Source of the DNA: a virus
Taxonomy: Duplodnaviria; Heunggongvirae; Uroviricota; Caudoviricetes
Reading direction: 5' to 3' (one strand)
DNA: 32,551 nucleotides
IMG/VR virus record: IMGVR_UViG_3300037587_000312
Span: 1-32,551 of that record
Position 1 is the stretch's first letter. Each line of letters begins with the position of its first letter. The translations under genes and the position numbers were made by a program. The notes under the pieces are model-generated. The model was not told the origin of the DNA. It worked only from the letters and a program-made list of their open reading frames with translations, and ran no database searches. Positions 11,108 to 15,265 of this stretch are shown here, piece by piece.

Positions 11108-11458
11108 CTAGACCAGTTCAATCCATACAACAGCGGGTTTGTGTGTCTTTGCCAATGCATGCAGTCGCGCATTACCTTTGACAATCTTATTTTTCTTCAT
11201 ATCAATCTGGATTGGTCGTTTAGGGGCATCAAAAGTCCGAGTATCACTCTTCCGTGCCATCACATCTACACTCCGGTATTTACTACTCGGTAATACTGGA
11301 TGCTCCAGCTTATCGAGAAGCATACCCGCTTTCTCAGCAGTAATCAAGTAATACTTACATCCGTGTGCATCTCGATGAAGGCTCGGAGTGAGATATTTCT
11401 CCACGTTGAACTTGAAGGTCATGCTTTTGATAACTGAATTAATAATCTTTTTCATCAT
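11108..11458 (-). CDS. possible stand-alone ParB/Srx-like domain protein
   Basis: PIQI...IVKGNARLHAL resembles the ParB-N PIxV...xxGxxRxxA motif. Confidence 0.45.
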   Translation of the reverse strand: MMKKIINSVIKSMTFKFNVEKYLTPSLHRDAHGCKYYLITAEKAGMLLDKLEHPVLPSSKYRSVDVMARKSDTRTFDAPKRPIQIDMKKNKIVKGNARLHALAKTHKPAVVWIELV

Positions 11459-11637
11459 TCATCCCCCGTAGTGAAAATATTAATAACAGTTGCAGATGTA
11501 TATCCGGCATCATCTGAATGAGATTTATAAAACTTTTCCCAGTAATCGAGGGTATTTGTATCAGGTGAGGAGTCCTCTGTCTCCCGTACTGTCCGACCAC
11601 GAGGTAATTGTATAATAAGGTGCCATGTTGTTGCCAT
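11455..11637 (-). CDS. hypothetical protein, first gene of the leftward unit
   Basis: 60 aa, AAGGAG SD, directly downstream of a promoter. Confidence 0.7.
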   Translation of the reverse strand: MATTWHLIIQLPRGRTVRETEDSSPDTNTLDYWEKFYKSHSDDAGYTSATVINIFTTGDE

Positions 11638-11668
11638 AATTCTCTCCTTTTACTACGAATTTGGATGA

Positions 11669-11697
11669 AGAATACACCAGAGGAAATCTGCTGTCAA
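11669..11697 (-). promoter_or_regulatory. sigma70-type leftward promoter
   Basis: TTGACA-17 nt-TATTCT. Confidence 0.75.
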
Positions 11698-11952
11698 CCA
11701 CACTTCATGGAAACATCAAGAATGGATTTTGATTGATCAAGATTTTATTGAATTGTCACTTGAAAACATGGTTTTTCTGAGATCAATCCTTTATAGAAGA
11801 ACAGCTTAGAAGCAAAAACAGGCCAAAAAGAGGCTCCTTATAGTCCCCTTATGCTATACCTATACATATTCACCTCTCTATTCCTCTTTCCTTTCTCTCA
11901 TTTATCTGCTATATTTCTCTACTGATTCATTATTTCGGAGACCAAATTAAGC

Positions 11953-13272
11953 ATGAATAAAGTTTATTACAATTACTACTATAGAGCACCTATATATATG
12001 AAAGATCTTAAGAAGAAAATAAAGGGTTTGTACTTGAGTAATCTTGACTATGTTCCAAGAGAAATTGAGTCTACTATCTCATGCTTCTGTTACAACCTAA
12101 TCAGGATGGTTAAGTTTGAATATGATCTTTGTCATATCATTATGAAGAGGAGTGGTAGAGTTCCTCGAGCTATTGTGAATGGAGAGGTGATTTGTAAACC
12201 ACCTAGTCAAACGAATACTGTCAATTTAGTGGCGTTGCTCGATAGGCTAGATCTCTTATACCTCTACAAAGGGTACAATGTCCACAGTGATTGTAAAGAA
12301 TTATCATATTTTTGCTTATCGGATGAACTGATTGATATGGTAAAGACAAATGTCAATCTATCACGGGTCAGGATTCAGCCCTATGAAGATGTTGTTATCC
12401 TTAAGAATGAAGATAAGAAACAGATTGAATATCTCAGAACACCGAAAACAAGAGGGATGATAAAGCAGGTAAGGGATTTCAATAAGGTTCTCTTGTCCCA
12501 TGATATACGGTGTGAGGGTGAATCTGTAACAGTCTCATTCAAGCGGGTGTTTAATAACAACAGTTTTGAATTGGGTGGTAGATTCTATACACACTCAGGA
12601 GAGATCCAGACAGTTTCATCCAACAAGCGGAAACTTATTTTGATTGATGGAGAAAAGGCAGGAGAGGCAGACTTCAAGGCATTGCATTTGAGCCTATTGT
12701 ATGAACTGTGTGGAGAACATATGCTCGAGGGATTTGATCCATATAATGCTAACCTGACACGATGTGCCAGAGTATTCCCTGATGAGATAGCCCAGTTTGT
12801 TGCTGACAATAACTTGGATACCAGCTATAATCCTATCAGAAATCTGTGTAAGATTGCTTCGTTGATCATGGTCAATTCAAAGAATGATAGAGAGACAGTA
12901 GCAGCTCTTCGTACTAAAGTGTTGAAAGATATGAGAAAGAAGGGAACATCAGATGATAGGGAAAGAGTATTTGTGGGTCTTGATTTCCAGAATGCTAAAT
13001 TAGATAAAATCATTGAGGCATTATCAGAACATAATAAAAGTATTGACCAGTACTTCAATTCAGGGTATGGTGTGAATCTTCAGTACCAAGATTCCCAGAT
13101 CATGTCGGGAGTGATACAGGATTTCATCGAAGCAGGTAAGGTCTGTATCCCAGTACATGATTCGGCTATCACTAAGAAAAGTGATATATCTTTCTTGATA
13201 GAGTCCATGCACAGCAACTATGAACGTGTCATGGGTAGTAAAAATAACTGTTTTGTGGAGGTGAAGTGGTGA
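11953..13272 (+). CDS. divergent family A DNA polymerase / T7-RNAP-like palm-domain protein
   Basis: GGRFY (cf. GRxY), EADFKALH (motif A Asp), RNLCK (motif B Rx3K), LQYQDS, VHDS (motif C). Confidence 0.65.
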   Translation: MNKVYYNYYYRAPIYMKDLKKKIKGLYLSNLDYVPREIESTISCFCYNLIRMVKFEYDLCHIIMKRSGRVPRAIVNGEVICKPPSQTNTVNLVALLDRLDLLYLYKGYNVHSDCKELSYFCLSDELIDMVKTNVNLSRVRIQPYEDVVILKNEDKKQIEYLRTPKTRGMIKQVRDFNKVLLSHDIRCEGESVTVSFKRVFNNNSFELGGRFYTHSGEIQTVSSNKRKLILIDGEKAGEADFKALHLSLLYELCGEHMLEGFDPYNANLTRCARVFPDEIAQFVADNNLDTSYNPIRNLCKIASLIMVNSKNDRETVAALRTKVLKDMRKKGTSDDRERVFVGLDFQNAKLDKIIEALSEHNKSIDQYFNSGYGVNLQYQDSQIMSGVIQDFIEAGKVCIPVHDSAITKKSDISFLIESMHSNYERVMGSKNNCFVEVKW

Positions 13273-13496
13273 GTAAAAATGATATTGATTATGAAATGCT
13301 GGAGCGTCGTATAGATCGCTTCATTGTCTTGAGTAAGAGTGATCTAAGCATGGCTATGGTGGGGAGCCTGCTTGGTTGTCTGGCCACCAGTTATAAAATT
13401 CCAGAGAAGGAGGTCTGGAGTATCTTCAACAAAAGACATAAAAAGATAGACCATGAAGCCAGTGAAGTGTACTTCGATATCGAGGAGTTGAAATGA
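13266..13496 (+). CDS. hypothetical protein
   Basis: 76 aa, GGAGG SD, coupled to the upstream gene. Confidence 0.7.
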   Translation: MVSKNDIDYEMLERRIDRFIVLSKSDLSMAMVGSLLGCLATSYKIPEKEVWSIFNKRHKKIDHEASEVYFDIEELK

Positions 13497-13756
13497 ATAA
13501 ACCAATGAGGACTGTCAATCAATGGAAATGCCCGTACTGTGACGCGGAAGGGGAGAAATCTAAATGGAATAAACCTTGTTATCGAGAGTTAGTGGAACAT
13601 GTACAAGAGAACCATTTAGAGGAAGCGTTCACTGAACTTATTGGTCGTTATACTCCTCAAGGAAAGAAACAATTGTTAGATGGTCATTGGGGGTTCTTTA
13701 CACCTCATATAACAATAACCAAGGAAGCTATTGACGAGACAGGAGAAGGACAATGA
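13493..13756 (+). CDS. C2H2-like zinc finger protein
   Basis: CPYC-x19-H-x4-H. Confidence 0.65.
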   Translation: MNKPMRTVNQWKCPYCDAEGEKSKWNKPCYRELVEHVQENHLEEAFTELIGRYTPQGKKQLLDGHWGFFTPHITITKEAIDETGEGQ

Positions 13757-14151
13757 AAAATAAAATAATGAATGGTCTTAAGCTGGTAGGGGCGATTGTA
13801 ATTGGAGTATCTCTCGGAAAGGGATGCAGTCATCTCAACGAAGATACTTTGTCTCTAGAGGTTTATGATAATATTGAGGCAGTCTATTGGCATGGGAGCG
13901 ATAATTACTCAATCGCAATAAAAAATAATAATAATATTATTACAATGAAATATTTACCGGGACAGAAAGTTATTCTTCATACGGGAAGCGATAAACCAAA
14001 AGCCCATTGTAAAGTGTATGTGGATGGGTGGGGTGATAGGAATTATAGGTCAACTTACTGCGATCTCTATATAGGCTCAGTTGATGATATCAACCCAGCT
14101 AGTTGGAACAAAGGTAAATTCGGTAGAGGCAATATTGCGAGGATTGAATAA
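13753..14151 (+). CDS. membrane-anchored hypothetical protein
   Basis: N-terminal hydrophobic segment; ATGA overlap. Confidence 0.75.
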   Translation: MKNKIMNGLKLVGAIVIGVSLGKGCSHLNEDTLSLEVYDNIEAVYWHGSDNYSIAIKNNNNIITMKYLPGQKVILHTGSDKPKAHCKVYVDGWGDRNYRSTYCDLYIGSVDDINPASWNKGKFGRGNIARIE

Positions 14152-14357
14152 TGAGCATCTGTGTTGAGGGAGAAAAAGAAGATTTCATTCACTGGTTCAG
14201 ACTCCTTGGTTGGGAGATTAAAAATGATCAGGCGAGTAAGAAAGGGACCGTCATCCACTTTACCCAGCGAGGAGATGAGGTTATTATCACGACATTGTCC
14301 ACTGGTTGGTACAGAGAAACAGATGTTAAAAATAAAATTATAATAAATTTCAATTAA
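14151..14357 (+). CDS. hypothetical protein
   Basis: 68 aa, GAGG SD, TAATG coupling. Confidence 0.7.
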   Translation: MSICVEGEKEDFIHWFRLLGWEIKNDQASKKGTVIHFTQRGDEVIITTLSTGWYRETDVKNKIIINFN

Positions 14358-14361
14358 GGGG

Positions 14362-14389
14362 TTGACAAATCATAAAAGCATGATACAAT
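14362..14389 (+). promoter_or_regulatory. sigma70-type promoter
   Basis: TTGACA-16 nt-TACAAT with TGn. Confidence 0.75.
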
Positions 14390-14412
14390 GGTTAAACATT
14401 GAGGAAATTGTT

Positions 14413-14607
14413 ATGGATTTTGTTTTATTGGTTATCTCCATCTTACTTGGAGCACTTAGTTTATATCTATTGTTTGCTGTTTGTATGGATTTTACAAACA
14501 GAATCCACTTAGTTAAGCCATACCACCAACTATTGATTGGTGTGGTAGTGATGGTTTCATCTGGATATGGTGCATACCACTCATATCTTGCATCAGGAGG
14601 GATTTAG
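14413..14607 (+). CDS. two-TM membrane protein (MDFVLLVISILLG...)
   Basis: Start at ATG 14413 with a GAGG SD; the track start at 14362 is the promoter -35 box. Confidence 0.7.
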   Translation: MDFVLLVISILLGALSLYLLFAVCMDFTNRIHLVKPYHQLLIGVVVMVSSGYGAYHSYLASGGI

Positions 14608-14717
14608 TGAATACACTAGAAGTTATTGGGTTATTAGGGACAGGTTTCGTAGCTGGTCTTTGGACCATGTGGTATGTCCTGAGACCATTTTTAAAGAAAG
14701 GTAAAGAAGAGAATTAA
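14607..14717 (+). CDS. single-TM peptide, 36 aa (MNTLEVIGLLGTGFVAGLWTMWYVLRPFLKKGKEEN)
   Basis: Translated by hand; GGAGG SD, GTG start overlapping the upstream TAG. Confidence 0.6.
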   Translation: MNTLEVIGLLGTGFVAGLWTMWYVLRPFLKKGKEEN

Positions 14718-14719
14718 TA

Positions 14720-15265
14720 ATGAAATTTAAAGACATACTCGCAGGCGCAGCTACTTTAACAAGTATTGCATTTCCTGCATTGGCACCAGTTATCGGGTTA
14801 GTAAATAAGCTTCTGCCAGATGATAAGAAACTTCCCGAGGACGCCACAGGTAATGATGTACAGGCAGTCGTAGATACTCTTCCACCAGAGCAACAAGCTT
14901 CTTTGATGGAGCGTGAGATTGATTTAAAGATCAAACAAGAGGAAGGTTGGACCGAGCGTTACAAAGCAATGTGTTCAGCTGATGGACAAGAAACTCGAGC
15001 TAAAGTTGTTATTATGTTGACAAAGGTTCTATGTTTTGAGATATTGGCTTTCACAGGCTTATTCTTCTGGCATCCAGAGATTCTAAGTAATTCCAGTGTG
15101 TGGGTAGTCTTCGGCACATTAACTGCTGTCCCAGCTGCTACTATTGGTAAGTATTTTGGTGAGCTGCGTAGAGAGCATGGTCAACGTCAGGTTTCAGCGG
15201 GTGCTGATCCGAAAGCAATGTCTGGATTAGGTGTATTAGCAAAACTAATTCCGTGGGGTAAGTAA
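14720..15265 (+). CDS. putative holin (3TM/GTA-holin-like)
   Basis: Amphipathic N-terminus (AFPALAPVIGLV), helical middle and two C-terminal TM segments, as in the GTA_holin_3TM family. Confidence 0.6.
   Translation: MKFKDILAGAATLTSIAFPALAPVIGLVNKLLPDDKKLPEDATGNDVQAVVDTLPPEQQASLMEREIDLKIKQEEGWTERYKAMCSADGQETRAKVVIMLTKVLCFEILAFTGLFFWHPEILSNSSVWVVFGTLTAVPAATIGKYFGELRREHGQRQVSAGADPKAMSGLGVLAKLIPWGK

Follow-up and report, generated by a model that had tools for sequence, protein, structure and literature searches.

We analyzed a 32,551-nucleotide stretch of DNA from a Caudoviricetes virus (IMG/VR record IMGVR_UViG_3300037587_000312, positions 1 to 32,551; hereafter, the window) and focused on one of its genes, P0001, an open reading frame (ORF) of 439 amino acids (aa). 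P0001 encodes a genuine and probably active relative of DNA polymerase I (Pol I) and T7 RNA polymerase (RNAP), half their size and with a head of the DNA-binding type. It is the first plus-strand ORF after a divergent spacer and heads the rightward transcription unit, as an earlier reading of the window from its letters alone (the sequence-only reading) had proposed. Its left-hand neighbors, on the minus strand, encode thymidylate synthase, a polymerase-type exonuclease subunit, endonuclease VII, a RuvC-like resolvase, an exonuclease, PhoH, and dCMP deaminase. Rightward, small ORFans and a tRNA cluster come before the terminase, portal, and virion genes. P0001 matched phrog_4756 (E = 3.9e-82), which is annotated as being of unknown function. 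The database gene call starts at M16; because residues 1 to 15 are kept in the four closest homologs (M1, N7, Y8, Y10, P13, and Y15 are invariant), the ATG at 11953 is the better start. The features of the locus are collected in Table 1.

TABLE 1 Features at the P0001 locus (window coordinates)
Feature	Position	Strand	Basis or remark
Divergent spacer, 315 bp	11638..11952	.	Separates the polymerase gene from the leftward nucleotide-metabolism/recombination block
divPolA2/TV-Pol-type polymerase gene P0001	11953..13272	+	phrog_4756, AlphaFold2 model, BLASTP to divPolA2 members
N-terminal winged-helix-like domain, residues 1-141	11953..12375	+	Structure searches
Polymerase core, residues about 142-439	12376..13269	+	Palm and fingers, family-A/T7-RNAP fold
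GGRFY hairpin, residues 208-212	12574..12588	+	R210 invariant; Q219 nine residues on
Motif A DFKALH	12670..12687	+	Catalytic D240 (12670-12672), H245 at D+5
Motif B helix RNLCKIASLIMVN	12838..12876	+	R296, K300, L304, N308
Motif C VHDS, residues 401-404	13153..13164	+	H402, catalytic D403, S404
76-aa ORF	13266..13496	+	GTG start; 7-nt overlap with the polymerase stop (13266-13272)

Predicted fold and active-site residues of P0001

An AlphaFold2 model of P0001, built with a 65-sequence alignment, had a predicted local distance difference test score (pLDDT) of 95.3 and a predicted template modeling score (pTM) of 0.90. In a Foldseek search of the Protein Data Bank (PDB), the model matched 136 chains at an E value of ≤1e-3 (best, 1e-6), and all 47 rows listed from the 50 best ranks were family-A DNA polymerases (DNAPs), including the apicoplast polymerase (apPol) and the Aquifex, Bst, Klenow, Taq, and T7 enzymes. 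A Foldseek-independent structure search (VIA), which addressed the region from about residue 142 to residue 439, returned apPol at 14.2 (237 aligned; root mean square deviation of 4.2), Klenow at 12.7, Pol nu and yeast mitochondrial RNAP at 12.5 each, T7 DNAP at 11.6, T7 RNAP and Pol theta at 10.7 each, N4 mini-vRNAP at 8.1, and N4 RNAPII at 7.4. On the basis of these matches, the modeled protein has a right-hand palm and fingers fold that is equidistant from the DNA and RNA polymerases of the superfamily. The structural alignments to Klenow and apPol cover both D240 and D403; in the model, D240 ends the strand formed by residues 234 to 241 and D403 lies in the hairpin formed by residues 398 to 401 and 404 to 408, a placement that, by secondary structure, is the canonical geometry of motifs A and C. 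Thus, the assignment of P0001 by the sequence-only reading to a compact branch of the PolA/T7-RNAP superfamily is borne out by AlphaFold2, Foldseek, and VIA alike. A profile-level link to the phage's own PolA was also tried and failed (hhalign probability, 0.7%), so the connection to the superfamily is structural only.

Most structural alignments to polymerases begin at about residues 142 to 156. For residues 1 to 141, the structure searches returned winged-helix folds alone, and Foldseek run on this domain agreed in kind, weakly (E = 0.06 to 0.5). With moderate confidence, we assign these residues to a winged-helix-like domain of the DNA-binding type, a part of the protein that the sequence-only reading had missed. 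That reading had correctly described P0001 as lacking an exonuclease domain, none being seen in a protein whose N-terminal third matches only winged-helix folds. Its size and the ranges of the alignments suggest that P0001 is also without a canonical thumb, and none has been reported for its family.

Conservation was counted in an alignment of 190 homologs. Five residues (R210, R226, D240, K300, and D403) are invariant, and H402 (189/190), H245 (188/190), G209 (186/190), and R296 (186/190) are nearly so. N308 (180/190), S404 (169/190; otherwise A, G, E, or C), Y212 (163/190), and Q219 (150/190) are less strictly kept. Because they are conserved across the 190 homologs, we regard the four motifs as functional signatures that, at the sequence level, lie far beyond chance. 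The signature of the main clade, to which P0001 belongs, is DxxxxH, RxxxKxxxLxxxN, and HDS; the two departures from H245 among the 190 are Barba1A (Trp) and AUR84708 (Glu). The positions that the sequence-only reading gave for GGRFY, the motif A Asp, RNLCK (R296 to K300; 12838 to 12852), and VHDS proved exact, and the ORF is open throughout. Equating these elements with the GR hairpin and motifs A, B, and C is backed by both the fold and the conservation, with each of the two motif Asp residues present in every homolog. The Tyr-Gly of motif B is indeed absent, as that reading had noted; N308-S309 stands in its place.

These residues bear on what P0001 might synthesize. From the motif spacing, we take the D+5 position, H245, to be that of the Pol I steric-gate Glu (E710) and the T7 RNAP Gly (G542), and N308 to be that of the motif B Tyr (Y766/Y639). 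The spacing of nine between R210 and Q219 matches that of R668 and Q677 in Klenow, which contact the primer terminus. T7-like RNAPs carry HDS in motif C, a GRxY hairpin, Gly at D+5, and RxxxKxxxMxxxYG in motif B; Pol I carries RxxxKxxxFxxxYG in motif B and HDE in motif C. Compared in this way, the His/Asn pair of the main clade is neither DNAP-like nor RNAP-like, and with H245 at the gate and N308 in place of the motif B Tyr, the sequence does not reveal the sugar choice. Some members, if not more of the family, look selective for deoxynucleoside triphosphates (dNTPs), since AUR84708 has the DNAP-like residues Glu, Tyr, and FDE. The pair R210 and Q219 argues that synthesis is templated and proceeds from a duplex primer end.

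Relationship to divPolA2 and TV-Pol

The sequence-only reading had missed that the family is already published: by sequence, P0001 is a member of divPolA2, described by computer analysis in 2024, and not a novel class, and the related TV-Pol family was likewise described by computer analysis in 2008. The divPolA2 family was described by Yutin, Tolstoy, Mutz, Wolf, Krupovic, and Koonin (2024, Virol J 21:200; PMC11348598), with Rheinheimera barbaviruses as prototypes and AUR84708 from Vibrio phage 1.063.O as the modeled representative; that paper reported paralogs in some phages and no detectable similarity for the N-terminal domain. We found no later paper naming divPolA2 in the literature. In BLASTP comparisons, P0001 matched AUR84708 (E = 8e-19 over 304 aa) and Barba1A gp034 (E = 4e-17), and a tblastn search with P0001 matched 115 Rheinheimera barbavirus records. 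The A1 family profile, which represents P0001 and its relatives, scored 2.6e-82 on Barba1A and 4.8e-89 on ICP1. P0001 shares with divPolA2 the family-A palm and fingers, motifs A, B, and C, the lack of an exonuclease, an N-terminal globular domain, and a location in a genome that also encodes a regular replicative polymerase, here an 859-aa PolA. As a difference from the published divPolA2 systems, the replicative partner in this phage is a PolA and not a PolB. The closest homologs of P0001 are 65% and 49% identical to it, and an exhaustive HMMER search found 4,408 cluster representatives (50% identity) at E ≤ 1e-3, 70 of them at E ≤ 1e-30. Single-sequence searches of viral contigs and of genome contigs returned no close relatives of P0001, NCBI-style and PDB sequence searches returned nothing useful, and Pfam gave no match at E ≤ 10.

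Members of the family differ at the active site. The gate, motif B, and motif C read Glu/Tyr/FDE in AUR84708 and Trp/Asn/HDS in Barba1A, in contrast to His/Asn/HDS in the clade of P0001. Because the steric-gate residue of AUR84708 (L045:25469-26761) and of Barba1A (L009:4587-5894) is not that of the main clade, divPolA2 clades may differ in substrate.

The TV-Pol family was defined by Iyer, Abhiman, and Aravind (2008, Biol Direct 3:39; PMC2579912) from examples that included the N-terminal domain of Sputnik V13, an element of Ma-LMM01, and rhodobacterial elements linked to integrases or resolvases. Those authors predicted primase-polymerase activity from the mobile-element contexts and noted that in some TV-Pols the thumb is replaced by another domain (PMC2579912). 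TV-Pol and P0001 have in common a minimal family-A core, a strictly conserved β-hairpin Arg, two catalytic Asp residues in an RRM palm, RxxxK in the fingers helix, and no nuclease; the corresponding residues of P0001 (R210, D240, D403, K300, and R296) are among the invariant or near-invariant positions given above. Both families occur in phages and mobile elements. The TV-Pol thumb consists of two antiparallel coiled-coil helices, whereas no such pair is evident in P0001, in which the model shows one helix (residues 164 to 181) between the winged helix and the GR hairpin. TV-Pol genes are linked to helicase, integrase, resolvase, or transposase genes, whereas that of P0001 has no such neighbor; a D5-like helicase, integrase, resolvase, or transposase adjoined the gene neither in the window nor in 36 related phage loci.

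Two further comparisons bear on how the families are related. First, the A1 profile weakly matched ORF30 of Microcystis phage Ma-LMM01, which adjoins two transposase genes, and hhalign of A1 against the ORF30 family (five homologs) gave a probability of 77% and an E value of 2e-5 over 135 columns. The motifs common to the ORF30 family and P0001 are GxRxY, Q, R, DxxxxH, KxAxLxxxN, and HDG. Because its transposase context matches the description by Iyer et al., we infer that ORF30 is the Ma-LMM01 TV-Pol of the 2008 paper. Second, a 619-aa homolog in Paracoccus versutus matched P0001 by BLASTP (E = 6e-21) and has the same motifs (GRFY, DFKAxH, RxxxKxxxLxxxN, and HDS), so that DxxxxH is found in both of these relatives. 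Its ORF begins 10 nt after a tyrosine integrase gene (PF00589), and Paracoccus is among the species of the TV-Pol paper (PMC2579912). The agreement in context and motifs suggests that divPolA2 is the phage branch of TV-Pol or a sister to it. On P. versutus pBEN (L053:4739-7822), the integrase and polymerase homolog are flanked by two identical rve-type transposase genes, an arrangement that resembles a TV-Pol-type mobile element made up of two genes, integrase and polymerase. On Thioclava electrotropha pTElox9 (L046:8974-9909), a homolog is truncated at its N terminus by an IS21 insertion and has as neighbors a DNA methyltransferase, a helicase fragment, and an AbiE toxin-antitoxin pair.

Genomic setting and possible roles

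The first and last stretches of about 184 bp in the 121,737-bp contig repeat one another (1-184 = 121554-121737), with shared 12-mers at 15/121568, 40/121593, 83/121636, and 112/121665. The assembly is complete at about 121,553 bp, as either a closed circle or a circularly permuted genome, and we take its gene content as complete because of this overlap, despite a CheckV completeness estimate of 85% for the self-closing contig. The phage encodes its own PolA of 859 aa (genome positions 47929 to 50508; phrog_17) and a T7 gp4-like primase/helicase (phrog_239; E = 9.5e-142), together with ligase, exonucleases, and resolvases; no paralog of P0001 is present in this genome. Since the phage has its own PolA and a gp4-like primase-helicase, P0001 is, by gene content, accessory to a full T7-type replisome.

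The homolog in the cholera phage ICP1 is ORF100 (gp100; 555 aa). Its transcriptome sequencing counts were 0 at T0 and 13 to 33 thousand at 4 min and peaked at 8 min (PMC7567579, Data Set S1), and the primase-helicase gene ORF57 followed the same time course (PMC7567579). This early-to-middle gene lies at 56.0 to 57.7 kb of the ICP1 genome, about 2 to 4 kb from the read-depth peak "near 60 kb" at which theta replication starts (PMC7145576). A review of ICP1 lists no predicted RNA polymerase and describes a replisome of Gp58 (Pol I) and Gp57 (gp4-type helicase-primase). In the window and in ICP1 (gp95-gp100), Barba1A, 4L372D, and Vibrio phage 1.063.O, the polymerase gene follows a divergent junction at a distance of zero to six genes.

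We tentatively favor, at somewhat less than an even chance, the explanation that P0001 is an accessory, site-directed primase-polymerase that starts phage replication. It would be an active, template-dependent polymerase of low processivity, with a family-A palm and fingers, a winged-helix-like head, and neither an exonuclease nor the usual thumb. The head would hold a specific DNA site or a single-stranded template, on which the core would start or extend a short chain; early in infection, this chain would be passed to the T7-type replisome formed by the gp4-like primase-helicase and PolA. Analogs would be T7 RNAP at the T7 primary origin, mitochondrial RNAP in priming, and the CcPol-MP primase. 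De novo initiation, a DNA target, a replication role, and an RNA or DNA product are all things that we infer.

Four considerations lead us to favor a primase-polymerase. The first is the fused head of the DNA-binding type, by analogy with the CcPol-MP primase of SCCmec (Bebel et al. 2020, PMC7581432; Rice 2023, PMC10061031). Attachment of a DNA-binding partner on the N-terminal side turns CcPol into a primase (PMC7581432, PMC10061031), and CcPol is the only characterized enzyme that Iyer et al. placed in TV-Pol (PMC2579912). CcPol-MP resembles P0001 in being a truncated family-A polymerase with a module of the DNA-binding type at the N-terminal side; it is encoded on a mobile element and gains de novo priming through that module. 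In CcPol-MP, the module is a separate, small, single-stranded-DNA-binding protein of the oligonucleotide/oligosaccharide-binding (OB) fold encoded next to the polymerase, with a helicase nearby, whereas P0001 has a fused winged-helix-like domain and no conserved partner gene. CcPol is also recognizably Pol I-like, keeps the ribonucleotide-discriminating residues of Pol I, and uses dNTPs, in contrast to P0001, with its His at the gate. The second consideration is that integrase-only elements encoding the same enzyme need a self-priming replicase, the third is the early-to-middle expression of the ICP1 homolog, and the fourth is its nearness to the ICP1 origin.

Several observations weigh on the other side. 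The phage already encodes a primase, and some phages carry divPolA2 paralogs (PMC11348598), which is unusual for a primase. In ICP1, the origin peak was binned at 1 kb and does not fall on ORF100. Genes of the family are only mildly enriched at the first position after a junction (14/31 loci versus a background of 27 to 30%, as counted with a crude ORF caller on loci that are not independent), and no helicase or other partner is kept beside the gene in the 36 related loci (BLAST E of 1e-5 or 0.05). Positions 11300 to 14800 hold no iterons, just short repeats at chance level, and the spacer has no conserved element. The adjacent origin raised by the sequence-only reading is unproven: the GC skew does switch sign at the spacer, where its cumulative minimum on the circular genome also lies, but it tracks the orientation of the genes in each of the five blocks, so we rejected it as an independent origin signal.

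For the family as a whole, we consider it possible, if rather doubtful, that divPolA2 proteins are site-specific starters in which the head sits at or near a theta origin and the thumbless core lays the first primer of RNA or DNA. They would serve T7-type or PolB-type phage replisomes that have no known initiator, and the near-invariant His that occupies the steric gate would give them an unusual preference of sugar. Were P0001 such an enzyme, a self-contained, chain-initiating family-A polymerase of 440 aa would define how small the working core of the Pol I/T7 RNAP superfamily can be. Such a polymerase would also fill a gap in the replication start or transcription switch of these phages and might be useful as a small enzyme. 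The family is very large, as its 4,408 clusters indicate, and is present in the model phage ICP1, which has no known replication initiator or phage RNA polymerase. To it, P0001 adds the clade signature, the winged-helix reading of the N-terminal domain, and the BLAST link to integrase-coupled elements but no new category of polymerase.

A bolder variant would make this protein of about 440 aa the smallest promoter-directed RNA polymerase known. As a minimal single-subunit, DNA-dependent RNAP in which the winged helix replaces the promoter-binding N-terminal domain of T7 RNAP, an unlikely alternative raised by Yutin et al., P0001 would account for the HDS of motif C and the GRxY hairpin (as in T7-like RNAPs), for the missing steric-gate Glu of Pol I, and for a gene that heads a transcription unit and has an early-expressed ICP1 homolog; paralogs in some phages would suit different promoter classes. 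The enzyme itself fits less well. P0001 is half the size of T7-like RNAPs (closest among them N4 RNAPII, the minimal heterodimer, PDB code 6dt7), and within its 439 aa, it has neither their N-terminal promoter domain and specificity loop nor an equivalent of the intercalating hairpin. It has a bulky His at D+5 and N308-S309, whereas they have Gly and Tyr-Gly, and AUR84708 combines Glu, Tyr, and FDE in DNAP fashion. We rejected assignment to the T7-like RNAP family (PF00940), for which Pfam gave no RNA_pol match, in view of these residues and the 140-aa winged helix; assignment to the Pol I type (PF00476) was likewise rejected, with no Pfam match and the residues His245, Leu304, Asn308, and HDS. 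A search for repeated phage-specific promoters, which found none, also argues against an RNAP. No 12-mer occurs at least four times in 121.5 kb; the enriched intergenic 8-mers form no promoter set, with only GATTGATC standing out (six copies); and T4-type late promoters are not in excess, TATAAATA occurring 8 times versus about 13 expected. A search of the genome with PF00940 was blank, as were its controls. PolA is the only ORF of at least 700 aa in the genome, so a canonical T7-like RNAP cannot be present.

Unlikely, too, is a specialized polymerase for repair, gap filling, or translesion synthesis, Pol nu/theta-like in spirit, that would act in recombination-dependent replication or after nuclease attack by host defenses. 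Linkage of the gene to repair genes is not conserved among other phages, a winged-helix head of a sequence-reading type is unexpected in a lesion-bypass enzyme, and the integrase-only mobile elements with the same enzyme need a replicase or primase, not a repair enzyme.

Last, it is improbable that P0001 makes another product (a template-independent tail, a decoy or signaling nucleic acid for counterdefense, or a modified-base patch): the gene is surrounded by small early ORFans of the kind that typify host takeover regions, its neighborhood is variable, paralogs occur, and CcPol-MP shows terminal transferase activity, but the positions that contact the duplex minor groove in Pol I are conserved (R210 and Q219), the full RxxxK fingers helix favors templated synthesis, and no defense or antidefense family was matched, PADLOC not having been run. 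Of the roles offered by the sequence-only reading, the primase-like enzyme, the RNA polymerase, and the template-independent nucleotidyltransferase all stay under consideration; the last is the least favored because the Pol I primer-terminus contact positions are conserved.

Spacer elements and downstream ORFs

The one σ70-like site found in the divergent spacer is that of the leftward unit (11697-11669); no plus-strand σ70-like site was found upstream of the polymerase gene at the threshold of the scan. The leader of the polymerase gene (about 11870 to 11925) carries a pyrimidine-rich (CT) tract of roughly 55 nt on the coding strand. An inverted pair of GATTGATC lies in the spacer at 11731 to 11738 and 11781 to 11788, 42 bp apart. 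This 8-mer is 5.4-fold enriched in intergenic DNA, where 6 of its 11 copies fall. It also forms part of a perfect 8+5+8 palindrome, GATCAATC-aggct-GATTGATC, at genome positions 84966 to 84994, in the convergent spacer on the opposite side of the genome near 85 kb. The inverted pair and the palindrome thus lie at the two main strand-switch points, at which the cumulative GC skew has its minimum and its maximum. GATTGATC may be a binding site for a regulator or a winged helix.

None of the ORFs downstream of the polymerase gene had a Pfam match, and the 76-aa ORF that follows directly is not kept beside polymerase homologs. Given its 7-nt overlap with the polymerase stop, this ORF may be translationally coupled to the polymerase. 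The three ORFs after it, for which no family matches were found, likewise overlap or abut, and this arrangement suggests that the downstream string of ORFans is translationally coupled.
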